A stretch of 64,000 nucleotides of DNA from Trypanosoma brucei (GCA_000002445.1 CM000207.1:1184001-1248000), one strand, 5' to 3'. Counted from the stretch's first letter, positions 1,584 to 64,000 are shown. Notes: generated by a model not told the origin, from the letters alone. Numbers and translations are program-made.

Positions 1584-3018
1584 TAGGCAAAAACAATACA
1601 CGGTTATTTCTATATGTGTATATGTACATATTATATGATGAAATATAAGTATAATTTCACTCAATCACATAAATATGTACGTGTGTGCGCAAACTTCCTT
1701 CATTTTTTCCCCCCTCTTCCATTTGAATCCGTTTCATGCCTTCAGTCAATGATATAAAACTATAAACACCACATCAGTTGGTGAGTTTCCACCAAATATA
1801 CGTCACATGTTTCATTTCACGCATAATTTCTCCTCATTCCACTCCCCTCCCCCCTCGCCCCCCCCTCCACTTCCTCCTTTCGGGTTTTTATTTCCTTTTG
1901 CAATTCAAAATCATACAAACGTTTTTTTGTGTGTGTGTTTGTTCACTTCAAAGGTTGAAAGATTAAACAAATATGGCGAAGGGACGCCATTTCATTTCAC
2001 CTAAGTTGCGTTAAAAATCAACTACGCATTTGTATTTGTGTTTGTAGGCGCGTGTGTAATTGCGTGATCAATTCATATCATATTTTCCATTATTAATAAT
2101 GGAATGTAAGAAGCTCACAACCCATAAACACAAACACACACACAAAAAAAAGAGTAGAGGTGAACAAACATCATGGCAGCAACAACTAGAAACAACAAAA
2201 AAACAAAAAAGATAAGAATTACAGTTTAAAGAAGGAAAAGTAAAACAAAAATATAACAATGACATCACAATACCAACATCAACAGCAACATCATTATTCC
2301 TCACTCTCATCACCACGACAACAGCGACAAAGTAACTAAAAACAACAAGCAAACAAACACACAAAAAAACAAAAACGGATACACTCCAGTAAAAATAAAA
2401 ACAAAAAAGATTTCCTCCCCCCCTTTTTTTCTTTCATTTCACCACCATCCAGTGATAATGTTAATAATGTTAATCATAATCATAATCATAACACCCGAGT
2501 CAAGTTTACCTCCTCACGTCACACTTTCCATACGAATTAATTTGGAAACAACACTCAACCGAGGGGGAAAGGGGGCTTTTTTTTTTCAAAAAAAAAAAAA
2601 GGAAGAAATTATAAATAAATAAATACATACATAAACGGCACTTAACGAAGTCAGTCAGAAGAAAAAACAAAACAAAACAAACAAACAAACGTAAAACGAA
2701 AACATGTACATTTAAGGTTGAAATATGAAAAAAAAAAGGGTAAGGAGAACAAAAAAAAAAGAATACAAAATCAAAGAGAGGAAAACTTCTTTTTTTTTTT
2801 TTTTGGGAGGGTGCTGGTGTTGTTATTGAGAGGGGGGGGGGGTATATATATATTTTTTTCCTTTTGATAGATGCCTCAGAAACTAAGAAAAGAAAAAGAG
2901 CGGGATAGACAGAGAATAAGCGACAGAGGTAGAAAAAAAAAAAAGAAAAAAAAAAGAACATAAAACATAAAACATAACAGAAAAAAGTATGGAGACCATA
3001 CACACACAAAAAAAAATA

Positions 3019-3041
3019 CATATATATATATATATATATAT
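3019..3041. repeat. (TA)n microsatellite
   Basis: Direct reading of a tatatata... run. Similar (TA)n runs lie at ~3346-3366, 3464-3497, 24645-24667 and 40490-40507. Confidence 0.9.
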
Positions 3042-3206
3042 GCACGTTAAAGCTCGCTGTACGGTAATCACGTACCTGAAACAAGAGCATTAGACGATAC
3101 CCATCACAGGCGCAAAAATTAAAAAAACAAAACAAATAAATATGAAGAATACGTTAAAGACAGCAGCCATACCTCCCGTTACGTTTAAGGATTTTGGTTG
3201 CTTTGT

Positions 3207-3230
3207 GTTGTTGTTGTTGTTGTTGTTGTT
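3207..3230. repeat. (GTT)8 microsatellite
   Basis: Direct reading: gttgttgttgttgttgttgttgtt. Confidence 0.9.
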
Positions 3231-3460
3231 TCTCCCTTCTTTCTTACCCCATTGCCCATTACCTCTTTCCCTCTTTCTCTTTTTTCCACCCCCCCCCCCC
3301 ACTTACCTCCCTTTTATCACTTATGCACTCGCATAAATAAATAAATATATATATATATATATATATGTACTCCTCCGCTTCGGAGTGATGGAACAAAAGG
3401 ATGACGTTTGGTAAAATAATACATATATTTATAAGAATACTACAACTGGATATGTATATA

Positions 3461-3463
<3 letters not shown>

Positions 3464-3497
<34 letters not shown>
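3464..3497. repeat. (TA)n microsatellite
   Basis: Direct reading. Confidence 0.9.
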
Positions 3498-3500
<3 letters not shown>

Positions 3501-4156
3501 CTTTTTTTTAAAAAAAACTAATAAATCAGTATAAATAATGACGTCATCATGACCAAAATACACGTTTTCCTTTTCTCTCCCCTTCATATGCACATAAATA
3601 TGCGTAACTGAAGAGGTGGAGTTCCGGTACTGAGAGTTAATGAAAACTAATTCCTTCTCATTTGTCATGACAGTTCCTCCTCCTCTCAGGGACTACACTC
3701 TTCCTATTGTCATCCTCCTCAAACTCGTAAAAAGGAAAAAAAAAGAAAAAAATGATAACAACGACCCGCCCCCCCCCAAAAAAAAGAAAATGATTGTATC
3801 AACAATATTTACACTACCAATGGGATGATTCCTTACGCGTATAAACAGAGATATTTTCTTTGATTCGCTTACCTACTCCACACACACACACTCACACTCA
3901 CACACACTGTCATATCTGTGCGTCTCAGGCATAACAAACTCCTAACTTTGAACGTATGCAACTTCCCCTTCCTTTCCTTCAATTTGTCGCTATGGCTGAG
4001 GAAATAACCCCTTCCATTCCCTTGTCGTGCTTTAAAATTCTTTTCCTAATCATTTTATTGACATGAAGCACCTTTAGCATTTTGGAGCAGCCACCAGCGC
4101 AGTCGCGTGTGCTGCGTGAGGCTCATTCGTTCATCATATTAACCTTCATAAACCAT

Positions 4157-8063: not shown

Positions 8064-9479
8064 TTATTTAGCACTGAAGCGAGGAACGTACCCTACGTAG
8101 GTGAAGGGAGTTATTGCGAGCAATTCGGCCCGTACATCGTCTGATATATCGGTGAGGCCATTGATGAAATTGCGTACCTGTTCCTCTGTTACGTCAGTGT
8201 TGCCTTGCGTCAACTTTTTAAGGGTTTCGTACGGCTTTGGGTAACACTCCCGACGCAGAACTGTTTGAATGCCCTCGGCTACAACTGCCCAGTTGGATGA
8301 CAACTCTCTACTGATAGTCTCCCGTGAAATCATTAACTTCTCCAGTCCTTGAGAAATTGAAGCAAACGCAACACATGCATGACCAATAGGAACACCGAGG
8401 TTCCGTAAAACTGTGCTGTCCGTAAGATCACGCTGCAGACGCGAAATGGGAAGCTTTGATGCAAAGAAGTTCAGCAGAGCGTTGCTCAACGCGAGGTTTC
8501 CTTCAGCATTTTCAAAGTCGATGGGATTCACTTTATGGGGCATCGTGCTGCTCCCCACTTCTCCTTCCTTCACCTTCTGCTTGAAGAATCCCATAGAGAT
8601 GTACTGCCATACATCACGGCACATATCAATGAGAATAACGTGCAAACGGGCGCATGCATCGCACAGCGCGGCCAAATGGTCATAATTCTCAATTTGCGTG
8701 GTGGCTTGCTGTCGTTTCAGTCCGAGATATTTGGCCAGAAACATATCAGCAAAGGCGCGCCAGTTCACTGATGGATATGCCACTAGGTGAGCGTTGAAGT
8801 TTCCGGTGGCACCTCCAAATTTTCCAGTCGTGGGTACTTCACACAGTTGTCGCCGTTGCTCGCGTAGCCGCTCTATCCAAACCACAAACTCCTTCGCGAG
8901 GTTTGTTGGCGAAGCGGGTTGACCATGCGTCCGAGCGAGCATCGGTACATCCCAATCAACAAGCTTTGAGGTAAGTGAGCCAATGATCCCATCGAGTGCA
9001 GGGAGGTACAAGGTTACAATAGCATCACGAATCATCATTGGAATCGCCGTATTGTTTATGTCCTGTGATGTCAAACCGAAGTGCACAAACTCAGTGACGT
9101 GACTAAGTCCACAAGTATCCATACGTTCCTTGATAAAGTACTCCACGGCTTTGATATCATGGTTGGTTACGCGCTCCAACCTCTTGATTTCCTCTGCACT
9201 ACTAACAGAAAAGCAATCCAGTGTGATTTTGCGCAGCTTCTGCAGCTGCTCATCAGTCACACTTCGTAATGGAACAATGGTGGGCACATCCTTACAGAGC
9301 GCCGTGAAGTATTCAACTTCCACCAACACCCGGTATCTAAAGAACCCATACTCAGAAAAGAAGGCCCGTAGCGCCTTCGTTTGACGTTTGTATCTACCGT
9401 CCAGTGGCGAGAGAGCGAAGAGGGGATTATCCACAGAATAATCCACACCGTTTAAGTCGGATGGTGAACCCTTCTCCAT
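8064..9479 (-). CDS. ADSL: Adenylosuccinate lyase (purine salvage; fumarate-lyase superfamily), 471 aa
   Basis: ATG at 9477-9479 (minus). N-terminal 'LSPLDGRYK' and the fumarate-lyase signature 'SSTMPHKVNPIDFENAEGN' (S-x-x-M-P-x-K-x-N) are present, and the length is typical of eukaryotic ADSL. Confidence 0.9.
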   Translation of the reverse strand: MEKGSPSDLNGVDYSVDNPLFALSPLDGRYKRQTKALRAFFSEYGFFRYRVLVEVEYFTALCKDVPTIVPLRSVTDEQLQKLRKITLDCFSVSSAEEIKRLERVTNHDIKAVEYFIKERMDTCGLSHVTEFVHFGLTSQDINNTAIPMMIRDAIVTLYLPALDGIIGSLTSKLVDWDVPMLARTHGQPASPTNLAKEFVVWIERLREQRRQLCEVPTTGKFGGATGNFNAHLVAYPSVNWRAFADMFLAKYLGLKRQQATTQIENYDHLAALCDACARLHVILIDMCRDVWQYISMGFFKQKVKEGEVGSSTMPHKVNPIDFENAEGNLALSNALLNFFASKLPISRLQRDLTDSTVLRNLGVPIGHACVAFASISQGLEKLMISRETISRELSSNWAVVAEGIQTVLRRECYPKPYETLKKLTQGNTDVTEEQVRNFINGLTDISDDVRAELLAITPFTYVGYVPRFSAK

Positions 9480-9636
9480 CCTTTCTTTTTGTTTTTTGTG
9501 TTACCCTTAACCACAGTAAGAATATATAAAGTAAAAGGAGTTGTACCCTAACTAAAAGTTCCTTTACACGTTTGTTACTATCGTGGCCCAAACGAAGCAC
9601 GAAAGGTTATCAGTGAAAGTGAAAAAGAAAAGATGA

Positions 9637-9654
9637 AAGAGAGAGAGAGAGAGG
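9637..9654 (-). promoter_or_regulatory. (CT)n polypyrimidine tract on the sense strand upstream of ADSL
   Basis: Plus strand (GA)9 'gagagagagagagagagg' ~160-175 nt upstream of the ADSL ATG. Confidence 0.5.
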
Positions 9655-9868
9655 GTCATAGAAAATGTATGTGAGCAGTCGAGGATGGTCGCGTTAGTCA
9701 TGTGTTGCGGCCGCTGCACTTGTGCCACAAAACCACAAGCTGGGCAAAAGAGAAAAAAAAAGAAGTGATTCACTGAATACAGTGAAGCAACAGCTACGCT
9801 AATGCAACTGGCTTTTTTTTGTATTCAATCTCACTTCTTCCCCCCCCTCCACTACATCGTGGAGTCAA

Positions 9869-11596
9869 TTACATAAGTATTCCAGATACATCGCTGGAAA
9901 ATACGTCCTCCGGCCCGAACTTGGCTCTGAAATCGAAAGAAACTCGCATGATAGCGGAGAAGTCGGGGGGTTCGCAGTGTGGCGTTGTGGAAAACTGGAG
10001 CAGGTTGTCATCAGAAAGTAACCGGATAGTAACACTTGGATTTAGTTTTTCCCACCTGCAGCGCCGTACCAATATTGGGCAGTGGCACCGCCCCTGTACA
10101 ACACCACCATCGCTGCCATCCTCAAACCTGCGCCGCATAAATAAGGCAACATATTCCAAAAGCGAAATGGCTTTACAACAACCCTCGTCAGTTGCAGCCT
10201 TCACAGAGAGGTATGCCGCAACTCGATCCGTGAGTGGGCCGCTGGACACCGTCAGTAAACCTTCGCTTCGTAGTGGACATGTCCAACGATATGAAGCTGA
10301 AATCAAACTGTGGCGGAGTGCGGCCAGAGGATAGTCGCGTGTTTGTGGCTTTACCGCGACAGGCCAACAACCGCCTCCACCCACATCTATTAACAGCCCC
10401 CAGCTGATTGTACAGAAATATAACACGCCCTCTTTTCCCAAATGCCAGGGACGCGGTACTGTGTTGAAACTCCAGAAACATAAACCATCCTCACGAAGTC
10501 GATGCGCTACTTGTATCGGTTTTGTCATCAGTTTCCTTCCGGTGCTGTGGGAGGAATTAGCCAGTACATCCCACAAACAGAATGACGGCATTAAGAAACA
10601 ATTCCCCGCCTCCTCTGAGCCAAAAAACGCGCTGAAGAGTGTGTAGAGGATAGATGTCGAATCGTCTGACCCGTAGAGACCACCGACTACAAACCACTCA
10701 ACCAGAAACAATGGAGGAACCGCATTTTCGTCTGAATCCACGTTTTGTAAACCACCAAAACGATACAATGACGAAATGGTCCGCTCTGCTGCGTCCAACA
10801 CTTCATCACTCTCATCACTCGCGGCGGCGTAAAACCATGCGGGTAGTGCCACCTCCCAGAGTGCGTTATAAAGTTGAACCTCCATTCCTCTGCTTTTATC
10901 AAAGTGGCACATTGCCGCAGTAAAAGTTTCGAAACATCGTGTGATACTCCCTACCTCATCTGGTGCAGTATGTTGCATGGCTGACATTACCTTGCACCTA
11001 AATGCGGGGTTGAGCCCAACTCGGCACGCCACAATAACACACGAAGTGGCATCCGGGCTCATAATATACGAACGGCGGTGGTTCCTTACTTTCGGGTTCG
11101 GAGAGAATATCGATAAACCGCACTCGGACTGCAATACAGTCATGACATCCGGTGCTCCACCGTTGATCAAAAACGTATTCTGGAAACATTGCGGTTGTGG
11201 CTGCTCCGTGCAACCAGATGGACCGGGGGTTTCCTTCACTTTCCTCAACTGTGCCTGCCCAAGCGGTTCCGAATCAAGAAGAAATTGCGGAGGTTCAGTA
11301 GGGTATTCAGATAATTTATCCGGAAGTGGGTGAAGGAACAGTGAGGGTCTCGGGAAGATCTCTTCTGTGTTAATATTTATTGCATCCCCATCATGAGTTG
11401 TTGCGCCGTACATGGAAGCGGCACCTTCTGCAGATGAAAAACCAACTACTTCGCACCGCTTTCTCACATAACGTTGCATGGCACTCGCCGATATTGCAAT
11501 CGCATAGTTGATGACCCTGGTCTCATTCACATTCGCGTCACCGAGCCCCTCACGCATCCGCTGAACTTCCGAAGCAGTCACATTATCAAAGGGCAT
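9869..11596 (-). CDS. Conserved hypothetical protein, ~575 aa from the first ATG. The ORF track begins 8 codons earlier at a GTG.
   Basis: Long minus-strand ORF. The first in-frame ATG is codon 9 (MPFDNVTASEVQRMREGLGDANV...). It contains a Gly-rich 'LIDVGGGGCWPVAVKP' segment. I do not confidently recognise the family. Its first ~49 codons and 5' flank are duplicated at 12829-12999. Confidence 0.6.
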   Translation of the reverse strand: MPFDNVTASEVQRMREGLGDANVNETRVINYAIAISASAMQRYVRKRCEVVGFSSAEGAASMYGATTHDGDAININTEEIFPRPSLFLHPLPDKLSEYPTEPPQFLLDSEPLGQAQLRKVKETPGPSGCTEQPQPQCFQNTFLINGGAPDVMTVLQSECGLSIFSPNPKVRNHRRSYIMSPDATSCVIVACRVGLNPAFRCKVMSAMQHTAPDEVGSITRCFETFTAAMCHFDKSRGMEVQLYNALWEVALPAWFYAAASDESDEVLDAAERTISSLYRFGGLQNVDSDENAVPPLFLVEWFVVGGLYGSDDSTSILYTLFSAFFGSEEAGNCFLMPSFCLWDVLANSSHSTGRKLMTKPIQVAHRLREDGLCFWSFNTVPRPWHLGKEGVLYFCTISWGLLIDVGGGGCWPVAVKPQTRDYPLAALRHSLISASYRWTCPLRSEGLLTVSSGPLTDRVAAYLSVKAATDEGCCKAISLLEYVALFMRRRFEDGSDGGVVQGRCHCPILVRRCRWEKLNPSVTIRLLSDDNLLQFSTTPHCEPPDFSAIMRVSFDFRAKFGPEDVFSSDVSGILM

Positions 11597-11931
11597 ACCT
11601 TTTTCCAATATTCCTTTCACCTCCTATTGCACGGATGCTAATGATCCGCTACGTAGTACATACACGCTACTTCATCAACCAAAAAATAAAATAAAAGATA
11701 ACAAGCAAAAGAACGGAAAGGAGGTGAAAGTAACTGAAAAGGTGGTATTTGGGGATGTAAAGGGGAATAAAAACAAAGGCACAGGGCCGTAACCAACAGC
11801 CAACGGAGAAGCTGTCAAGGGGGGCGTGCAACTGAAAAAAAAATGTTACAAAAGAAAATAGAAATGATAAAGGGCACAGTATGACTCAGGGAAAAGGCCC
11901 CTCCAATAGGTGGAGGCAGCCCTTAAAGGTC

Positions 11932-12516
11932 TTAACGGCGGCGACGGCGAACCATCGACTTCTTCTTTTTCTTGGCTTGGAAGATAATACCGTCATGTAC
12001 CTTCTCGAACCACTTCATGGCCTCCTCCTTACGGACACGGTGGTTGAAGCCCACACGGCTAACCCTGCGCTTCCGGTGCGCCACGCGCTCACCGCGGCGG
12101 CCGAGAACGACGTAGAAGTCCATACCATAGATACCGGTAGACGGATCATATTTGATACCAAGATCAATATGCTCTGAGATACCGAAGCCAAAGGAACCTG
12201 TGTCAGAGAAGTTGTAGCTCTTTAGCTCAAATTCCTTAACCTTCAGACCCTTTTCCAGTAGTTCCTCAGCCTTCTTGCCACGCACAGTGCAGTGCACGGC
12301 AATCTTTTCGTTACGCCGGATACCAAATGTACGGACCGTTAATCGCGCGCGGGACAGAACGGGAGTCTGTTCGCAGAGTTGCTCGAGCACCTTCGATGCA
12401 CGGGTGAGACGATCACCAGATTCACCCACGCAAATGTTAATGCAGAGCTTTTTTACGACAATCTCCCGCATCGGGTTTGCCGCCTTCTTCTCAGCGCTCA
12501 CCTTTGCCTCAGCCAT
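11932..12516 (-). CDS. RPL11: 60S ribosomal protein L11 (uL5), copy 1, 194 aa from the ATG. The ORF-track 'M1' is a TTG.
   Basis: '[85 protein letters not shown]' is a near-textbook uL5/L11 sequence. ATG at 12514-12516. Confidence 0.9.
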
Positions 12517-12632
12517 TGTCAAGAACGGAGGCTATCCCTTTCTACAGCCACTACATGCGCAGGACAGTGGAGGGAGTGCATTACGGTAAAGTTCAAACCA
12601 ATAAATAAATAAGGGTGCGGTTGTATGTGTAT

Positions 12633-12662
12633 GGGGGGGAGGGGAGGAGGGAGGAAAGAAAC
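12633..12662 (-). promoter_or_regulatory. Polypyrimidine tract (sense strand) upstream of RPL11 copy 1
   Basis: Plus-strand purine run 'ggggggaggggaggagggaggaaagaaac' ~115-145 nt upstream of the ATG. It is duplicated at 14012-14041 for copy 2. Confidence 0.5.
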
Positions 12663-12746
12663 AACCAATTCAACTATAAAGCAGAAGGGTCTTCCGACAG
12701 CAATCACGTGAAACATACCAATTAAGAGCAACAATAGAAAATAACA

Positions 12747-12779
12747 CATGTATCCACAACTATATCCTGTGGATACATG
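12747..12779. other. Perfect 12-bp inverted repeat with a 9-nt spacer (catgtatccaca-actatatcc-tgtggatacatg) in the unique 120-bp junction between the two duplication copies.
   Basis: Direct reading: the left arm 12747-12758 is the exact reverse complement of the right arm 12768-12779. The motif 'gtatccacaac' recurs at 12813-12823, and the related 'catccacaacc' lies at the distal boundary (14093-14103). Confidence 0.85.
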
Positions 12780-12828
12780 CCAAAACGTTGCGATTATTAG
12801 AAATTTGACAAAACGTAGTATCCACAAC

Positions 12829-12999
12829 ATCGCACCGCTTTCTCACATAACGTTGCATGGCACTCGCCGATATTGCAATCGCATAGTTGATGACCCTGGT
12901 CTCATTCACATTCGCGTCACCGAGCCCCTCACGCATCCGCTGAACTTCCGAAGCAGTCACATTATCAAAGGGCATACCTTTTTCCAATATTCCTTTCAC
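12829..12999 (-). pseudogene. Truncated duplicate of the 5' end (first ~49 codons plus upstream flank) of the 9869-11596 gene. It is a gene fragment created by the tandem duplication.
   Basis: ORF 12760..12999 translates to the same N-terminus (MKGILEKGMPFDNVTASEVQRMREGLGDANVNETRVINYAIAISASAMQRYVRKRC) as the 9869..11620 ORF, then diverges at the breakpoint (…KRC-DVVDTTFC vs …KRC-EVVGFSS). Confidence 0.8.
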
Positions 13000-13310
13000 C
13001 TCCTATTGCACGGATGCTAATGATCCGCTACGTAGTACATACACGCTACTTCATCAACCAAAAAATAAAATAAAAGATAACAAGCAAAAGAACGGAAAGG
13101 AGGTGAAAGTAACTGAAAAGGTGGTATTTGGGGATGTAAAGGGGAATAAAAACAAAGGCACAGGGCCGTAACCAACAGCCAACGGAGAAGCTGTCAAGGG
13201 GGGCGTGCAACTGAAAAAAAAATGTTACAAAAGAAAATAGAAATGATAAAGGGCACAGTATGACTCAGGGAAAAGGCCCCTCCAATAGGTGGAGGCAGCC
13301 CTTAAAGGTC

Positions 13311-13895
13311 TTAACGGCGGCGACGGCGAACCATCGACTTCTTCTTTTTCTTGGCTTGGAAGATAATACCGTCATGTACCTTCTCGAACCACTTCATGGC
13401 CTCCTCCTTACGGACACGGTGGTTGAAGCCCACACGGCTAACCCTGCGCTTCCGGTGCGCCACGCGCTCACCGCGGCGGCCGAGAACGACGTAGAAGTCC
13501 ATACCATAGATACCGGTAGACGGATCATATTTGATACCAAGATCAATATGCTCTGAGATACCGAAGCCAAAGGAACCTGTGTCAGAGAAGTTGTAGCTCT
13601 TTAGCTCAAATTCCTTAACCTTCAGACCCTTTTCCAGTAGTTCCTCAGCCTTCTTGCCACGCACAGTGCAGTGCACGGCAATCTTTTCGTTACGCCGGAT
13701 ACCAAATGTACGGACCGTTAATCGCGCGCGGGACAGAACGGGAGTCTGTTCGCAGAGTTGCTCGAGCACCTTCGATGCACGGGTGAGACGATCACCAGAT
13801 TCACCCACGCAAATGTTAATGCAGAGCTTCTTTACGACAATCTCCCGCATCGGGTTTGCCGCCTTCTTCTCAGCGCTCACCTTTGCCTCAGCCAT
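13311..13895 (-). CDS. RPL11: 60S ribosomal protein L11 (uL5), copy 2. The protein is identical to copy 1.
   Basis: The ORF-track translation is identical to copy 1. ATG at 13893-13895. Confidence 0.9.
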
Positions 13896-14298
13896 TGTCA
13901 AGAACGGAGGCTATCCCTTTCTACAGCCACTACATGCGCAGGACAGTGGAGGGAGTGCATTACGGTAAAGTTCAAACCAATAAATAAATAAGGGTGCGGT
14001 TGTATGTGTATGGGGGGGAGGGGAGGAGGGAGGAAAGAAACAACCAATTCAACTATAAAGCAGAAGGGTCTTCCGACAGCAATCACGGAATAACACATCC
14101 ACAACCTTGTATCTTTCGGCAAAAGCATGCGGTGACTGAAACTGTCAGGTTGGAATCTCCCTTCTTCAGTGTCTCGTCAAGATGAGAAGCAGCACGCAAC
14201 CGCCTGATGAAGGGAAAGTGGGGGAAAAAATACAAATATGTCCTCTACCTTCGTGCACGGAAGAGTCCCCGATAACGTCTTTAACGTCGCCAAGCAGT

Positions 14299-14868
14299 TC
14301 AATGCGTATCGGGTAAGTGACTGCACAACCAGTCTAAGCCCTCAAATAATCCTTCTCCAGTTTGAGCACAACATCCCTGAACATACCATTGGCGCTCGCG
14401 CAGCAATGGCCCGAGTCCCGCTGCACCCTGCTCGCGGAAGCCCAATTTATCAACAAGCTCTCCGGGTGTTAACCTATTGGGAAGATCCTGTTTGTTGCAA
14501 AATACTAGGAGAGTGGCCGAAGACAACAAAGGTTCTCCAAGCAACTTAGTCAACTCACTCCGCACTTCCATCACCCTATCCCGGTCATTACTGTCGACGA
14601 CAAAAATAATGGCATTGGCACCTTCATAGTAATGCTTCCAGAGGGAGCGAAGAAGCTTCTGCCCACCAACATCCCAAAGATGAAACTTCACGTTTCTATA
14701 TTCCACTGTCTGCACGTTGAATCCAAGCGTAGGCACTGTCTGCTGGACTTCGTTCAACTTTAACTTCCATAAAATTGTTGTTTTTCCAGCCGCATCAAGA
14801 CCCACCATGAGGATAGTTGCATCCTTCTTGGAGAAGAGCCCTTCGAACCAACTCAGCACGTTACCCAT
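14299..14868 (-). CDS. ARF-like small GTPase (ADP-ribosylation factor-like, ARL), 189 aa from the ATG. Gly2 is a predicted N-myristoylation site.
   Basis: Track codon 1 is a GTG and the true start is the next codon, ATG (MGNVLSW...). G1 'GLDAAGKTT', the switch/G3 'WDVGGQ' characteristic of the ARF/ARL family, and G4 'NKQD' are all present. Confidence 0.8.
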
Positions 14869-16103
14869 CACTGCTCGGGAAATTGGCCCTTTCCGTCACA
14901 AATCTTGAGTAATCTCTGACACTTCGGTGTTTTTTGTTGTTTTTTTTTTTTGACACCTTCGGCGATATTATGTTTTTGTCTTTTTTTTTTAATTGTTTTC
15001 GTTCCACGTGATGCCTGGCTAGAACAAACACGTACCTATGCTTTTATGGATGTTGCTGTGGTTGTTTTCAAGAATTGACGACGCAACAGCAGCAGCTGCA
15101 AACCGGACAGATAAGTCGTCACCAATCTCTCCTTTCCTCAGCCCGGGGTTCCTCCCGTCCAAAACAAAAACAAAAAATAATAATGATAATAATAATAATA
15201 AAACGGACTATTTTCCACTCCGCGTACCACTTTTGGTCTCCTCTCTTAACACTTTATTTGTGTTTATCTCCTTCCCTTTCTCTTCCTTTTCTTCTTCGGT
15301 TTGACTACACGCCTATGGTGTTCGTACTGCGGCAATTACAGTTTCCTCCCTTCTGCCGTCAGACAAACCCCTTTTGGCCCTGTCCTTTTCCACTTTCCTT
15401 TCGGCGAACCCACGAGAAATGACATCGATAGGGGTGAATGTTCATCCCCACACAAACACATACGCATACAAAGGAAGAAGTGATTTTAAAAAAAAAAGAA
15501 AGAAATTAATTGAGAGAAGTGTGCCACAGCTACGATGGCGATAGCGGTAATTAAAGAGCGCACAGATTTGAGGTCAGACACACCGCGTTAAATTGCAAAT
15601 GCTCGCACATTAGGGTGGGAAATGGACAGTATAATAAAGAGAGTGTGCAAACACAACCGCATTCAATCCTTTACTATAAAGGATAAGTTAGACAGTATTC
15701 TGTTAACCCAAAATAAATAAGAATAAAAGGAATGCGACGCAGTTAACAAATATTGTCTTGGCTTTCAGTTGCTTATATGACTAAAAAAAGAGATTCTCCT
15801 GCGGTGAGTCACCTTTTCCACCGGGTCACTGACACCTCCATTCTCCCTTTAAGGCGAGTTAAACGTTTCAGTTGGTATGACGAAACGGCAAAAGCACGTG
15901 CACAAACACCCGCATATGGTGTGCCCCGCGCTACTGATGCCACTCAAATTTTCACTTAGAAGGGTATGCATTTCTTTTTTTATTTTTTTTATTTTTATTT
16001 TTTTTGGGGGGGTACTCCTTATGTCGCCATTCACCAATAGCGGAAGGGACCTCAACACCGCATGCTAAGAAACCAACAATAAAGAGCACGAGATACTCCC
16101 AAC

Positions 16104-16811
16104 TTACCTCCACTGCACCTTCTTCTTTTCTTTGGAGCTCCTCAACTGTCCATTCCGCTTCAAGGCAGTTGTTACGGACTTTACTGGGGCTTTCCTGCTT
16201 TTCTTCGGTAACGGACTGATTGTCGTTTTACCCGCTAACAAAGCCTTCGTCTTAACTGTCGTTTCTTTCGCTGCGTCATTACACCCCAACACAAACTCTT
16301 CCATATCATTTTCTTCATTTTCCTCAGTCCTCATCCCTTTATCATTGCGGGCCTCTTCAGGTTTCGATTGGTTATGTTCCACTTGCTCTTTGGTCATACG
16401 CGCAACATCCTCAACGGAGAGGGCGTGACCCGCTACGGGAGTTGTGGCGCTGATAACTTCGTATTGGCACGTCACGGGATGTGGAGCGTCCGGGTTGCTC
16501 TTACCGTAGTAATTAGTGGTTGGCGGTTTAAGTTTCAGTGGCTTGTTGAAATCAGGCGACTCCCGTATAAGTTGCTCGTAGTTATTATTGAGGCCCTTGC
16601 ATGTGTGCGGGACGTTATGGTCCATTTGGGGGTTCACAAAATGAAAACGTGTCTCGGGATCCTGCAGCGGAACCTCACTCAAACCGCCCTCCGCCGCGAG
16701 TTTCAATTTCCCATTAAGGCGGCCAATGCGTTTTGAGACTGTTGCCGCTTCCAACTGCGCACGCTGACGGCGGTGCGCCTTCTTCCACTTTGAGCGGGTG
16801 GACTTCGCCAT
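16104..16811 (-). CDS. Basic, Lys-rich 235-aa protein whose N-terminal motif resembles LLP/LAPS18 (learning-associated protein homolog). It is probably nucleolar.
   Basis: ATG at 16809-16811. 'MAKSTRSKWKKAHRRQRAQ' resembles the LLP-family N-terminus 'MAKSxRSKWKRKxRAEKRK' (from memory). The C-terminus is Lys-rich. Confidence 0.4.
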   Translation of the reverse strand: MAKSTRSKWKKAHRRQRAQLEAATVSKRIGRLNGKLKLAAEGGLSEVPLQDPETRFHFVNPQMDHNVPHTCKGLNNNYEQLIRESPDFNKPLKLKPPTTNYYGKSNPDAPHPVTCQYEVISATTPVAGHALSVEDVARMTKEQVEHNQSKPEEARNDKGMRTEENEENDMEEFVLGCNDAAKETTVKTKALLAGKTTISPLPKKSRKAPVKSVTTALKRNGQLRSSKEKKKVQWR

Positions 16812-59235: not shown

Positions 59236-60397
59236 AAAAAAACAGGGGGTTTTATTGGGTAGCAATGTCTGTATCCACCGTTGAGCCCCACACTACCATG
59301 TCCTCACGGCGTGGTGTGCGTAAATGAATTTCCTTCTTATTCTCTGGTGGACCGACTGCATGGCCCTGACAGTTGCGGGAGGAAAAAAGTCCTGTATAAG
59401 AGTAACCAAAAAACGAATCGACCCTCCAGTCTACGTCAGAGAATCGTCCTTACAAGTCAACTGAGGAACCTTTTTCCGTACCCTTAAAACATGCCTGCGA
59501 TAAACCCCTCACCGTCCACCACGCAGCACGTACACATTTGTTACCTGAGGTTGCGGTTGCTGAGCAGTTGTCTGGTGTGTGTTTTGATGCTGTTGTTGCG
59601 GCAACGTTTCATGTGCCAAAGAAAATTATGAAATATATCCAATAAGTGTTTCTGCAACGAATAAGTAAGGTTATGTGAAACTAAAACACATAAAAGGATC
59701 ACTGCTTTCCATAGTTCCTGCATGAGCAGAGAATTGTTGGCACATAACATCTACTAACACTAGCCATACTGACAGCAACTTATTCCTCCTGCCCTCCGCC
59801 CTTGCACACACACCTCACAGTAACCAGTAACACCTCACAACTATTTTAAACATTCGGCTTATTGTCTCAACAAAAGTCAGAGGGTTAGTGACTTTCCTCT
59901 GTCACAAGCGGGGTTATTGCGACGGTAAGTTATTCCATTTTATCCACACATATATCAAATACAAAAAGTAATAATTAAGTGATGTCGCGTAACTGTTTTA
60001 GTCATAATTCAATGTGGAGTGTTGCGACCTTCAATTTCTTTCGAAGTGCGAGTTGGAGGCCATAAGCTTCTTCTCCTTGTTGGTAGTTATGTGGGACATG
60101 TTAGTTGGACTCGGTCACCATAAGTTCTGTCGTCTAACAGATAACAACAACATTATTTCTAAAAATTGTTATATACATTCAAAGAGTGAAATAGAGTGCA
60201 TTTGGATAGAATAAATTAAGTCTCAAAGCAACAAAAAGATACTGTTGAATTTACTGCAAACACATTACACAAACACTTTCAATGAACAAACACATTATAC
60301 CATTAACACAATTAAATTCCAAATACTATAACACATGTATTCTGTTCCAAAAAGTTACAATAAGTATTATGGTAATCACATCATAAGGTTATCACGA

Positions 60398-61366
60398 TTA
60401 AAGAAAAAAGGAAAAAAATGAAATCACAAGTGCAAATAATTTTTCCACCATATCTACATTTCGGTTATAAGCATAAGCACCATCAAAGGGTTTCCTCCTC
60501 ATGTAAGATAACATTGGTAGCAACATTGTATCATCAAGAAGGCATTGCTCCCTCTGTGCTGCAGTAAGATTGAGCCATGAGTTTTCAAGATACATTTTGT
60601 CAAGTTCCGCCTTTACACTGGGAGTGCTGTAACATGTTTCGGCAGAGCAAACGGTGCAACTGCGTTTCTTCATTCCTTCCTCAAACATTTGCGTCATCGA
60701 ATTAAGATGTCTTTTCAGGTTGTAAAGAGAAGCATTTTTCATCCGCAGGATTTCTGTTGTGGAATTAATAATATGTTGGGTAATGCTGTCGTTGCACTGT
60801 TGCTTTGACTTGTCAATTTTTTTAATTTTCTCTTTGTTTGATGTTTGAAGGGTCGCAACTGTTTCAGTTGAATATGTTGCTTTTTTGCTGTTCTCGCTGC
60901 ATATTACTTCTTCTGCCTTTTTAATTATTATTTTTTTTGCTTGTATTTTTTCTTTCCATCGCTGGAGTTCAGCCTTCAAGTTCTTGACCTGTTGTTCATA
61001 GGGTTTTGTTTTTGTGATTACCGGTTTGTTGCACAAACCTCTCCCTTCCACTTCGTCTTGCAACAATTTGTGTTTTTGAACTAATTCGTCAAGGGTTTTC
61101 TCGTTACTGCACTTCCAAAGCTTAGGAACGTTGGAATAATCAATCAAATCACAGAAGACCCAGTTCTTCTCATGGCTGTACGATCCTCGAACTGTCAAAG
61201 AAAGCCTTATCATATGATCCGTGTAATCCTCCTCCATCCATTTTGTATAATCGCAAGAATCAGCGCTTGCCCATTCACTTAAGCGAGACATCAGTAGCAA
61301 AACTCCAAATAGCATTCGCATTTTCCTAACGTCCCTGCGGAAGATAACATGAAACAGAACATTCAT
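60398..61366 (-). CDS. Secreted or surface coiled-coil protein, paralogue A (322 aa; a likely signal peptide begins at the Met encoded at 61319-61321). It has a hydrophobic C-terminus, possibly a GPI-addition signal.
   Basis: ATG at 61364-61366 and an in-frame ATG at 61319-61321 (MRMLFGVLLLMSRLSEWASA). There are Cys-containing N-terminal motifs (DSCDY...WVFCD...KLWKCSNE), a long heptad-rich K/E/Q region and a C-terminal 'CTVCSAETCYSTPSVKAELDKMYLENSW' motif. The tail 'VEKLFALVISFFSFFL' is hydrophobic. Confidence 0.55.
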   Translation of the reverse strand: MNVLFHVIFRRDVRKMRMLFGVLLLMSRLSEWASADSCDYTKWMEEDYTDHMIRLSLTVRGSYSHEKNWVFCDLIDYSNVPKLWKCSNEKTLDELVQKHKLLQDEVEGRGLCNKPVITKTKPYEQQVKNLKAELQRWKEKIQAKKIIIKKAEEVICSENSKKATYSTETVATLQTSNKEKIKKIDKSKQQCNDSITQHIINSTTEILRMKNASLYNLKRHLNSMTQMFEEGMKKRSCTVCSAETCYSTPSVKAELDKMYLENSWLNLTAAQREQCLLDDTMLLPMLSYMRRKPFDGAYAYNRNVDMVEKLFALVISFFSFFL

Positions 61367-61595
61367 TTATTTTGCCCAAAACACACCTGCATAAGAGGGG
61401 CAATATTTTCATCTAAAGGACAAAACCAACTGTACCGATTCGCAAAATGATAATACCATGATAATTAACTAACATGTATGATATCCATAAAAATTCCATT
61501 ATTATTTCACATGATGGAAAGAAACATCTGCTTAAACTAACAGATTAATAAGTAAGAAAAGATACAAACATAGCATATTTTATTTCCATAGCTGT

Positions 61596-62453
61596 TTACA
61601 TGTTTTCATTATATTTTGAATTATTCCCTTCAGTATCCTCATGTGGCGCCCCGCATTTAACACCTGATTTTGTCCATCCATCTTTTCCATATAATTTATC
61701 CAAATTTTCCTTTATGTGCACATCATCCCAACAAGTCCCAGCGTCACATGCGGGACAATTATTATTTCCAAGTTTTTCCAGCTGTTGTTCCTTCAGTTCT
61801 ATTGCTTTCTTCACACTTTCGATTTCTTTGTCCATTCTTTCTAGTTCAAGGTCGTATTCCACTTGCTTTTGTAGCTTTTTTTTTTTGCACTCTGTTGCCT
61901 CTTTTTCCGAAAGTGTGTCCAGCCGTGCACTTTCGTTCGTGAGGTCCCGTATCTTACCATCCTCTTGTGACATCGTTTTCATTTCCTTTTGGCACTTCTT
62001 CTTTTCTTGAACCTCCCGTGTACTCCCTTCTTGAAGTCTCGCATGCTCCTCCTTCGCCTCCTCAATTTGCTGCTGCAGTTGCGCCACCTGCTCTTTAAGA
62101 AGCCTCACTGAACTATCTACCTTCGCTTTGCAAACAGTTACGTCACCCACTTCACCGCTCCAGTTGAATTTGCTGGTTATGAGGCTTGTCGGATTATTGT
62201 TACTTGAAGTACCACAAAACCACAACAATTCACTTCCACCTTCCCTCCTTCCGCTGTTGTTGCATAACATCCACTTGTAATTTCCGTTCGCAAATTCATC
62301 AGCGTTTACTATCACGGCATGAATATCCTCCTCTCTTCCGTCTACTTCATACCTTCTCAAGGTGCAACCTTCTGCCTTCCCTTCCCCCCTCCCACTAAAA
62401 AGCAATAGCGTCATCCCCGCCCACAAGAACATAGCTTTCCCACGCCCTTTCAT
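61596..62453 (-). CDS. Secreted coiled-coil protein, paralogue B (285 aa from the ATG), with the same architecture as paralogue A but no hydrophobic C-terminus
   Basis: Track M1 is a GTG and the first ATG is codon 6 (62451-62453; MKGRGKAMFLWAGMTLLLFSGRG signal-peptide-like). It has 'EGCTL...WMLCNN...LLWFCGTS', a coiled-coil segment (LLKEQVAQLQQQIEEAKEEHARLQEG...), and 'CPACDAGTCWDDVHIKENLDKLYGKDGW' matching paralogue A's CxxCxxxTC(W/Y)...ELDK(M/L)Y..(N/D)(S/G)W motif. Confidence 0.55.
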   Translation of the reverse strand: MKGRGKAMFLWAGMTLLLFSGRGEGKAEGCTLRRYEVDGREEDIHAVIVNADEFANGNYKWMLCNNSGRREGGSELLWFCGTSSNNNPTSLITSKFNWSGEVGDVTVCKAKVDSSVRLLKEQVAQLQQQIEEAKEEHARLQEGSTREVQEKKKCQKEMKTMSQEDGKIRDLTNESARLDTLSEKEATECKKKKLQKQVEYDLELERMDKEIESVKKAIELKEQQLEKLGNNNCPACDAGTCWDDVHIKENLDKLYGKDGWTKSGVKCGAPHEDTEGNNSKYNENM

Positions 62454-64000
62454 ATTGTAACTTTGCACTATATGCCTTTCAAAAACCTTGTTGTCCTTGT
62501 TAACAAATGCGTATATAAATCAAATGAAATAATGGCAACAGCGAGTGTTAATTATAGTGACGGCAGCTTCTTTTCTTACTCTGAAGTAGCACTGAATTTA
62601 TTTCTCCATTGACACACGGCACAATGGCAGGACACAAATAAAGCTGAAAGTAAAATTTAACAAAAATAATATGTGATCCAAATACCAAACGGGTGTGGCA
62701 CCATGCATATCCAAGTGCAAACCTTTCACAGAAGATATACACGAAATAAATGAACACACATTTTCTGATCATCACACGCATATGCATATCCTACATTAAT
62801 TTCAGTTAACAGTTTTTCTCCTTAGCGATCCCTACTTCATCCCCGCATGTCTCACATTTATGTTCCTCATAACCTACAACACATATCAGATGCGCTGCCA
62901 CTTCCATCCTACCACCACAAACTCACATCAAATCCCCTCCTTTTTCCCCTCCCTCTGCATAAAGTTGCAATTCAACAAATGCAGCAGCATCACAATTCTG
63001 GAGATTCCGGTAATGCGATCACCCTGAAGAACAATTAATATTAACGGGCTGCATCTCTCACTACAATTCCACATAACGACACACCCCATGAAATATGAGA
63101 ACTTTTGGTGACATTATATCGTTTGGCATTTCCTACCAACATTCAAAAGGATTTGCCACACATCACAATTAGTTGCTGTATATCGTAAAACACCGTGAAA
63201 TAGTGTAGCAGTACGAGAAAAGGGGAGTCTAGTCCCTCTCCCGTAACTTCATCATTTCAATAAATGCTAACAGTATTCACGACCCAATACAAAAGACAAG
63301 GAACAACAACATATGGGAGATTTTACAGAATCCCACTTCTCTGCATCACAGCATCACCCTCGATGGCTCCTACACCTCGAGTTGAAGTAGACATGATAAT
63401 TCATACAGGGGTCGAACGGAAAGATAACATATATATATGTATATACATAACATATGATACGTAATACGTAATACATATTCCAGCACTTTTGTTGCTATCC
63501 ACAGAGATTTGACATGTTGGGAAACAAAATATACAGAATCAACATTACTCCAATTGCATCAGCCTCACAACACATTCGAGCGAGGGAATTGTGTAGAACT
63601 CAAGTACTGGAAATGTGAGATGCCATAAACATGTAACGATTAAACTTGAAAACAAATGCAATCTGGAAGTAAGTGTAACTAATGTATGGAATGACTGGAA
63701 TTGTTGGAAATACAGAATTTAATATAACTAAAAATAATACGTGTATTTTCATGCCACACGGAATAAAAAATGTGATAGAATACAACAACAGTAACCACAG
63801 TGGCTGAAATTCAAATAACACAGTTAAGTCACAGTTGCAGCATAAACACTTCTGGAAAGACTCCATAAAGGGTAAGAAAACTAATCATATTTCAAAGACT
63901 CAATTAGGCGTGGAAGAGAAACGGCAACTGGTACAAAATTAATGTAACTGCAGGAACATAGTGACACCAAGTGGCCATAAACTCAAGCGCCTGATGTGAA

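Follow-up and report, generated by a model that had tools for sequence, protein, structure and literature searches.

A tandem RPL11 duplication in Trypanosoma brucei that reaches into the neighbouring gene and evolves in concert

We analyzed a stretch of 64,000 nucleotides from Trypanosoma brucei (GCA_000002445.1, CM000207.1:1184001-1248000), hereafter the window, and focus on its tandemly repeated gene for ribosomal protein L11 (RPL11, uL5) and the gene downstream of it, hereafter the neighbour. The locus is the RPL11 pair Tb927.9.7590/Tb927.9.7620 on chromosome 9 of T. brucei brucei TREU927. Very probably, the pair goes back to an old head-to-tail duplication that is homogenized by gene conversion and serves gene dosage, and that left a truncated copy of the neighbour (the stub) between the RPL11 copies as a by-product. 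The duplication as such is already known, annotated and published, and is ordinary for T. brucei. In the searchable literature we did not find the repeat boundaries and the complex junction between the copies, the unannotated stub that co-evolves with its parent gene, or the recurrence of differently bounded duplications across Trypanosoma, although these details would not surprise a specialist.

Repeat blocks, junction and stub

When the window was compared with itself at a shift of 1379 nt, two direct repeats of 1258 bp were seen (Table 1). Apart from one mismatch in the RPL11 coding sequence (CDS) the match between them is unbroken, and BLAST widens it, with gaps, to 11445-12712 versus 12824-14090. 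No other repeat of at least 100 bp was found in a BLAST self-search of the window. This is in good agreement with an earlier description of the stretch (the original prediction), which had proposed blocks of 1259 bp with a period of 1379 and thus was correct to within 1 bp. The self-alignment suggested there as a check places the blocks as tandem units, and they are likewise tandem in several assemblies. The blocks are arranged head to tail but do not strictly abut, as a unique junction of 121 bp, J, lies between them. Each block comprises the RPL11 splice signals and CDS, the 3′ untranslated region (UTR) and intergenic region, and the 5′ UTR and first 146 nt of the neighbour. The complete RPL11 CDS and the polypyrimidine tracts lie inside both blocks, as had been proposed. 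An Rfam scan of 9500-15500 at E <= 1 gave no match; thus, the spacers do not conceal a small nucleolar RNA or any other known RNA.

Both RPL11 copies encode the same protein of 194 aa, which passes the gathering thresholds of the uL5 families in Pfam (PF00281, 70.6 bits, cut-off 34.9; PF00673, 66.7 bits, cut-off 27.8) and is identical to EAN76780 and EAN76781, both annotated as “60S ribosomal protein L11, putative” in TREU927. The same locus has been described as encoding “identically coded proteins,” and TbL11 as essential for the 5S ribonucleoprotein particle and ribosome biogenesis (PMC6706469). The passages of that paper that deal with the gene IDs do not mention repeat boundaries, a junction, a stub or the maintenance of the copies.

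The position of the distal breakpoint was compared between assemblies. In TREU927 the repeat ends 146 nt, or 48.7 codons, into the neighbour CDS, which is in accordance with the breakpoint proposed ∼49 codons into this gene. In T. b. gambiense DAL972 and in a long-read T. equiperdum assembly the stub reads GCGAAGT followed by TGTGG, versus GCGAAGT followed by AGTTGG in the gene. This places the original breakpoint at about nt 149 of the neighbour CDS. The parental start at 11596 is backed by the N-termini of the orthologues: the ATG at this position is a conserved start, followed by codons giving MPFDNV here and MPFCNV in T. rangeli, T. cruzi, T. cruzi marinkellei and T. conorhini. The GTG at 11620, and its counterpart at 12999, is merely an in-frame codon upstream of the true start. 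Annotations of this start are inconsistent, giving a protein of 575 aa in TREU927 and DAL972, of 590 aa in T. equiperdum OVI (L002 6921-8705 in the OVI locus numbering) and of 598 aa in the Logan gene calls.

The open reading frame (ORF) of the stub encodes 71 aa, of which 48 are parental and 23 are encoded by the junction. Its homology to the parent covers codons 1-48/49 and ends at the duplication breakpoint; past this point no similarity between the stub and the neighbour was detected. The original prediction had placed an orphan fragment of the neighbour at 12829-12999. Its fusion to unrelated junction sequence holds, but its start is at 12975, since 12999 is the upstream GTG. The fragment retains the splicing and 5′ context of its parent, as was also suggested, with the polypyrimidine tract and AG acceptors wholly within the repeat.

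No exact match to the 71-aa peptide was present in a collection of 15 billion proteins. The 575-aa product of the neighbour is identical to EAN76779/XP_827109 (“hypothetical protein, conserved,” TREU927), and EAN76779, EAN76780 and EAN76781 are consecutive GenBank accessions for the neighbour and the two RPL11 genes. It thus seems that GenBank has no annotation for the stub. A search of full texts and supplements for Tb927.9.7600 and Tb927.9.7610, the IDs between those of the RPL11 genes, gave no occurrence. The only ID recovered when searching for intervening genes was Tb927.9.7580 (“hypothetical protein, conserved”), which is probably the neighbour.

The junction J has a complex structure. 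It contains an 11-nt direct repeat, GTTGTGGATAC, at 12828-12818 and 12760-12750, and a perfect 12-bp palindrome, CATGTATCCACA / TGTGGATACATG, at 12779-12768 / 12758-12747, and its DNA fold has a z of -3.6. The 3′ part of J (12766-12740, 27 nt) is homologous to the 25 nt directly upstream of copy 2 (14113-14089). This local alignment has a score of 27, a value attained in 3 of 2000 shuffles, and its end coincides with the block edge. Within J, a 29-nt insertion (12739-12711) parts the homologous stretch from the block. For the ∼41 nt of filler in J we found no source in the window, where nothing longer than 13 nt matched elsewhere. From these boundaries we infer that the original duplicated segment spanned ∼14113 to ∼11448. 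Thus, an ancestor of the T. brucei group would have duplicated ∼1.29 kb head to tail, starting shortly before the RPL11 polypyrimidine tract and ending at about nt 149 of the neighbour. The complex join, with its filler, direct repeat and palindrome, suggests an event of the replication, microhomology or template-switch type rather than a clean unequal exchange.

Table 1. Features of the RPL11 locus, listed in the direction of transcription (window positions)
Feature	Position	Strand	Basis or remark
Arf-like GTPase	14871-14299	-	Pfam Arf match
Diverged extension of the duplicated segment upstream of copy 2	14089..14113	-	Homology to J; likely original proximal breakpoint
Repeat block, copy 2 (first in transcription direction)	12830..14087	-	Shift-1379 comparison, BLAST
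Pure polypyrimidine tract of RPL11 copy 2, 29 nt	14012..14040; first AG 13930	-	Predicted role in trans-splicing
RPL11/uL5 CDS, copy 2, 194 aa + stop	13311..13895	-	Pfam; exact match to EAN76780/EAN76781
Pyrimidine-rich tract upstream of the stub ORF, 99 nt	13060..13158; AGs 13049, 13046	-	Predicted function
Stub ORF (orphan 5′ fragment), 71 codons + stop	12760..12975	-	Orthologue alignment, translation
Unique junction J, 121 bp	12709..12829	-	Common to all T. brucei-group assemblies examined
Repeat block, copy 1 (second in transcription direction)	11451..12708	-	Shift-1379 comparison, BLAST; runs on into the intact neighbour
Twin 29-nt tract of RPL11 copy 1	12633-12661; first AG 12551	-	Predicted role in trans-splicing
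RPL11/uL5 CDS, copy 1, 194 aa + stop	11932..12516	-	Pfam; exact match to EAN76780/EAN76781
Only paralogue difference in TREU927	12451 (AAA, copy 1), 13830 (AAG, copy 2)	-	Both Lys, synonymous
Twin 99-nt tract of the intact neighbour	11681-11779; AGs 11670, 11667	-	Predicted function
Neighbour (parent of the stub), conserved hypothetical, 575 aa	9869..11596	-	First 146 nt inside the repeat
Adenylosuccinate lyase	9479-8064	-	Pfam ASL match

Concerted evolution within the T. brucei group

The junction and the block edges are common to TREU927 and three other T. brucei-group assemblies. DAL972 has two RPL11 copies with a period of 1378, and the long-read assembly GCA_003543875.1 (T. equiperdum by its RHW accessions) has three copies and two stubs. 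In the short-read scaffold of T. equiperdum OVI a single RPL11 copy is seen, along with a 10-N gap (L002 5646-5655) located exactly at the proximal repeat edge. The gap is followed by the end of the stub, J and the block, which is the signature of a collapsed repeat. As the junction and the block edges are common to these lineages, the duplication is older than their divergence. RPL11 copy number thus varies between two and three in the T. brucei group and reaches four in T. vivax, which answers the comparison of strains and species that had been proposed.

To compare the copies, eight repeat units from T. brucei-group assemblies were aligned. At nine substitution sites and in three indel events both TREU927 copies differ from both DAL972 copies, while a single paralogue difference is found within each of the two genomes. 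Of the nine substitutions, the RPL11 CDS contains four and the pyrimidine-rich spacer three; the other two affect the neighbour, one in its 5′ UTR and one in its CDS. The last of these (11541/12920) gives Gly19 versus Asp19 and is present in gene and stub alike; the conversion tract thus takes in the N-terminus of the functional neighbour. Within the unit, polymorphism is highest in J, which has 4 differences between TREU927 and DAL972 over its 121 bp, compared with 9 in the 1258 bp of the block. The three-copy array is a mosaic at alignment columns 909-927, where copy A is of the DAL972 type, including deletion of a Lys codon, and copies B and C are of the TREU927 type. In DAL972 both RPL11 copies (L007 4623-5204, 6001-6582) encode 193 aa, the C-terminal lysine run being shorter by one Lys codon, and the three-copy T. 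equiperdum array contains both length alleles.

Paralogues within a genome are thus more alike than orthologues between TREU927 and DAL972. Since the differences between these strains are common to all paralogues within each genome, we conclude that the copies are kept alike by concerted evolution, through gene conversion and/or unequal crossing-over. The original prediction had left the choice between a recent duplication and concerted evolution, which is hereby decided for the latter. The 1258-bp core has been homogenized repeatedly since the duplication, and the same process also yields the variation between two and three copies. Homogenization halts at the 29-nt indel, where homology is broken. 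Being inside the conversion tract, the stub co-evolves with the real N-terminus of the neighbour and can donate sequence to the gene.

Two explanations that do without homogenization were considered. A recent duplication, in which there was too little time for the copies to diverge, would account for a single mismatch in 1258 bp, but it is highly improbable given that both copies of TREU927, and both of DAL972, carry the nine substitutions and three indels by which these genomes differ, and that the same complex junction and breakpoints occur in these two genomes and in two T. equiperdum assemblies. Also, the sequences just outside the block (14089-14113 and 12740-12766) are homologous yet broken by indels. 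As the shared junction predates the split of the lineages and the between-strain changes are in both copies, this explanation was rejected. It is even harder to believe that one RPL11 locus was mis-assembled as two. Two or three copies are found in independent assemblies, one of them long-read, and the copies carry variants that distinguish them. Although short-read assemblies do mishandle the locus, as the single copy and N-gap of OVI illustrate, J joins the stub to RPL11 upstream sequence in every assembly, the collapsed OVI scaffold included, and the literature treats the locus as two genes. An artefact was rejected because the structure seen here recurs in four other independent assemblies. 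Concerted evolution of an old duplication is thus the explanation that we retain.

RNA-processing signals and gene dosage

Every gene called in 8064-16811 (adenylosuccinate lyase, the neighbour, both RPL11 copies, the Arf-like GTPase and a 235-aa ORF) is on the minus strand. The order in the direction of transcription is Arf-like GTPase, RPL11 copy 2, the short stub ORF, RPL11 copy 1, the 575-aa gene and adenylosuccinate lyase. Each unit has a complete RPL11 CDS, the 29-nt tract with its AG and, downstream, the 99-nt tract; their use is deduced from the sequence. The first AG after the 29-nt tract is 35 nt upstream of the RPL11 ATG, and the AGs after the 99-nt tract are 71-74 nt upstream of the ATG of the neighbour or stub. 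According to published rules (PMC6597758), spliced-leader addition favours the first AG that follows a polypyrimidine tract, and the poly(A) site of the preceding mRNA is set by a “measured” distance of ∼100 nt upstream of the active tract. Because the unit includes the splice signal of the downstream gene, both RPL11 copies should be processed identically at both ends. The stub is predicted to be trans-spliced at 13049/13046 and polyadenylated ∼100 nt upstream of the copy-1 tract (12661), i.e., at ∼12760, its own stop codon. The predicted product is an RNA of ∼0.3 kb containing the 71-codon ORF.

A gain in dosage could explain why the duplication was kept. With a genome transcribed polycistronically without gene-specific promoters, and with identical signals for trans-splicing and polyadenylation on each copy, the duplication would increase gene dosage for a ribosomal protein whose mRNA is very abundant. 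This explanation is based on what is known of dosage arrays in trypanosomatids (Jackson, 2007) and on the very high abundance of RPL11 mRNA; among full-length nanopore transcripts, that of Tb927.9.7620 ranked first in abundance with 6076 reads (PMC10048164; bioRxiv 2023.01.27.525864).

Trypanosomatid dosage arrays such as those of tubulin, histone and S-adenosylmethionine synthetase evolve in concert (Jackson, 2007, BMC Evol Biol 7:54, PMC1855330). The RPL11 repeats resemble these arrays in being arranged head to tail on one strand of a polycistronic unit, in the near-identity of coding and non-coding sequence, in their homogenization by conversion, in copy-number variation between strains and in the gene-dosage rationale. 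As in the arrays, divergence begins where structural heterogeneity breaks the repeat. In contrast to them, RPL11 has two copies (three in one strain) and is not among the 47 larger arrays analyzed in that study. The RPL11 repeat also does not end in the 3′ UTR or spacer but spans the whole spacer into the next CDS, and every internal spacer bears the stub of a different gene.

Truncated gene duplicates arise generally in eukaryotes when a tandem segmental duplication has its breakpoint in a neighbouring gene. Like such partial duplicates, the stub consists of a 5′ fragment that runs into junction sequence and stops prematurely, and is found only where the duplication exists. Unlike them, it needs no promoter of its own, as it inherits a splice acceptor and is predicted to be processed by default, and it is situated inside an active conversion tract shared with its parent.

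The RPL11 locus in other trypanosomatids and the status of the stub

The trypanosomatids compared share the gene order Arf-like GTPase, RPL11, neighbour, adenylosuccinate lyase and calpain. In T. grayi and Leishmania mexicana there is one RPL11 copy and no stub, nor is there, between RPL11 and the neighbour, an independent gene of the kind that the original prediction had named as an alternative to a fragment. T. vivax (long-read assembly, L008) has four copies with a period of 1473, and its spacers each contain the first 117-125 nt of its own downstream gene, giving an ORF of 42 codons. In T. melophagium (L013) a block of 2460 bp, repeated with a period of 2477, contains RPL11 and the first 1352 nt of the neighbour, and the partial copy of the neighbour is frameshifted. 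The stubs of both species match the neighbour gene of their own species. A T. theileri contig of 2406 bp (L014) shares 86% identity with the T. melophagium block, its end falling no more than 4 nt from the distal edge of that block. Probably, this contig represents the same duplication in collapsed form. The T. cruzi unit (long-read assemblies; L009 6897-14464, L011, L012) measures ∼3.81 kb, is present twice and includes the Arf-like gene, RPL11 and the entire neighbour. In T. conorhini, N-gaps (L005 2278-2302, 6646-6670) are flanked by repeats ∼3.82 kb apart, a pattern that would fit a T. cruzi-like unit that was collapsed. For T. congolense, two RPL11 accessions with consecutive numbers are on record. 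In the other trypanosomes the tandem copies are 99.6-99.9% identical.

Thus, the same gene in the same synteny (Arf-like GTPase, RPL11, neighbour, adenylosuccinate lyase) is duplicated in T. brucei, T. vivax, T. melophagium, probably T. theileri, T. cruzi and probably T. conorhini, whereas the units differ from that of T. brucei: 1473 bp in four copies in T. vivax, 2477 bp in two copies in T. melophagium and ∼3810 bp in two copies, with the Arf-like gene and the entire neighbour, in T. cruzi. We count at least three, and probably four, independent tandem duplications at the RPL11 locus. That this happened independently in several lineages of trypanosomes suggests that selection for RPL11 dosage has acted repeatedly. 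Short-read assemblies break or gain N-gaps exactly at the edges of the RPL11 unit (T. conorhini, T. theileri, T. equiperdum OVI), and RPL11 copy number is under-reported in such assemblies.

The count depends on whether the T. brucei and T. vivax arrays stem from one duplication in a salivarian ancestor, with the differences at their edges due to shifted boundaries of the conversion tract. The blocks start at similar distances upstream of the RPL11 ATG (192 nt in T. brucei, 187 nt in T. vivax) and end 146-149 and ∼117-125 nt, respectively, into neighbour CDSs that can be aligned without gaps, and the two T. congolense accessions would fit. Long concerted evolution is plausible as well, given that T. 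theileri and T. melophagium are 14% diverged yet apparently share one distal boundary. Nevertheless, the distal breakpoints are ∼21-30 nt apart, and the T. vivax junction of 263 bp could not be aligned with the 121 bp of J (noise-level scores). Neither junction retains decayed homology to the gene past its own breakpoint, where comparisons likewise gave noise-level scores only, and with four different unit types independent duplications are frequent at this locus. One ancestral duplication is thus possible, but we lean toward separate events. Another question is whether the stub is itself functional and selected, either as a trans-spliced small mRNA for a 71-aa peptide or as an RNA with a decoy or regulatory role, which has its 5′ UTR and N-terminal codons in common with the neighbour. 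The 71-codon ORF is intact in all T. brucei-group genomes compared and the complete splice-acceptor context of the parent is kept, but intactness over so small a divergence is no evidence of constraint, and the divergence within T. brucei is too low for a ratio of nonsynonymous to synonymous substitution rates on the stub. T. vivax, independently or by descent, has its similar 42-codon stub in each of three inter-copy spacers, yet the junction-encoded tails are unrelated (23 aa in T. brucei, ∼3 aa in T. vivax), and two of the four differences in J alter the T. brucei tail. Where RPL11 is single-copy there is no stub, in T. melophagium it is much longer and frameshifted, and in T. cruzi the whole gene takes its place. 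The lack of the peptide in the protein collection and the consecutive accessions, with apparently nothing annotated between the copies, also speak against a functional stub, which we consider unlikely. Similarly, we doubt that the stub is constitutively made into a small trans-spliced, polyadenylated RNA that is translated to 71 aa or titrates factors binding the parental 5′ UTR and N-terminal codons. If true, selection on such an RNA would explain why the first ∼40-49 codons are kept between the RPL11 copies in both T. brucei and T. vivax. As its tail is unconserved between species, its length ranges from 42 codons to the whole gene and it is absent where RPL11 is single-copy, the stub is most likely a by-product without a function of its own.

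Some points weigh against an old, conversion-homogenized duplication that serves dosage and has the stub as by-product. The single-copy status of T. grayi and T. cruzi Dm28c (2013) comes from short-read assemblies, which can collapse repeats. GCA_003543875.1 contains long-read indel errors, seen as frameshifts in the neighbour, and some of its single-base differences may be errors as well. For the 41 nt of filler in J no source was detected in the window, and the mechanism proposed for the junction is tentative. Expression of the stub and the position of its poly(A) site are predictions from processing signals, and the dosage benefit is presumed from the general paradigm and one abundance figure.

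The locus offers a worked example, at base resolution, of a probable dosage increase for a highly expressed trypanosome gene in which gene conversion keeps the RPL11 copies identical across the divergence of subspecies. The conversion tract spills into the N-terminus of the neighbour, so that a pseudogenic stub co-evolves with a functional gene and can donate sequence to it. Sequencing reads will map to more than one position over all of RPL11 and over the 5′ UTR and first 146 nt of the neighbour, short-read assemblies collapse or break here, and the unannotated 71-codon ORF could surface in spliced-leader or ribosome-profiling data. The details of boundaries, stub and recurrence should therefore be useful for annotation, for read mapping and as a small case study, and recurrent selection for RPL11 dosage is a modest, testable evolutionary point.

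In a Pfam search, the neighbour gave a match of 20.6 bits to PF14736 (NTAN1, protein N-terminal asparagine amidohydrolase), below the gathering cut-off of 24. The match, with a best E-value of 1.3e-4, covers positions 191-241 of the 270 in the profile and is located in the C-terminal region of the protein. Similar weak, sub-threshold matches were obtained for all seven proteins searched, namely the 575-aa neighbour and six full-length orthologues, and precomputed PF14736 matches are available for some homologues from Leishmania and from metagenomes (Logan). The neighbour may thus be a kinetoplastid N-degron amidase-like protein, which we regard as a lead rather than an assignment to the family.

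A few further observations were made. The uL5 protein of Leishmania enriettii is annotated with 347 aa, versus 188-194 aa elsewhere, and is probably a gene-model fusion or extension. In T. cruzi the neighbour and adenylosuccinate lyase are separated by a spermidine-synthase gene, which is absent from the T. brucei locus and is flanked by direct repeats of 470 bp (L009 14565-15033 = 16028-16497). Finally, the G+C content of the window dips at 2001-4000 (0.335) and 60001-64000 (0.36-0.40), while it is ∼0.47-0.54 elsewhere, with strong skews.

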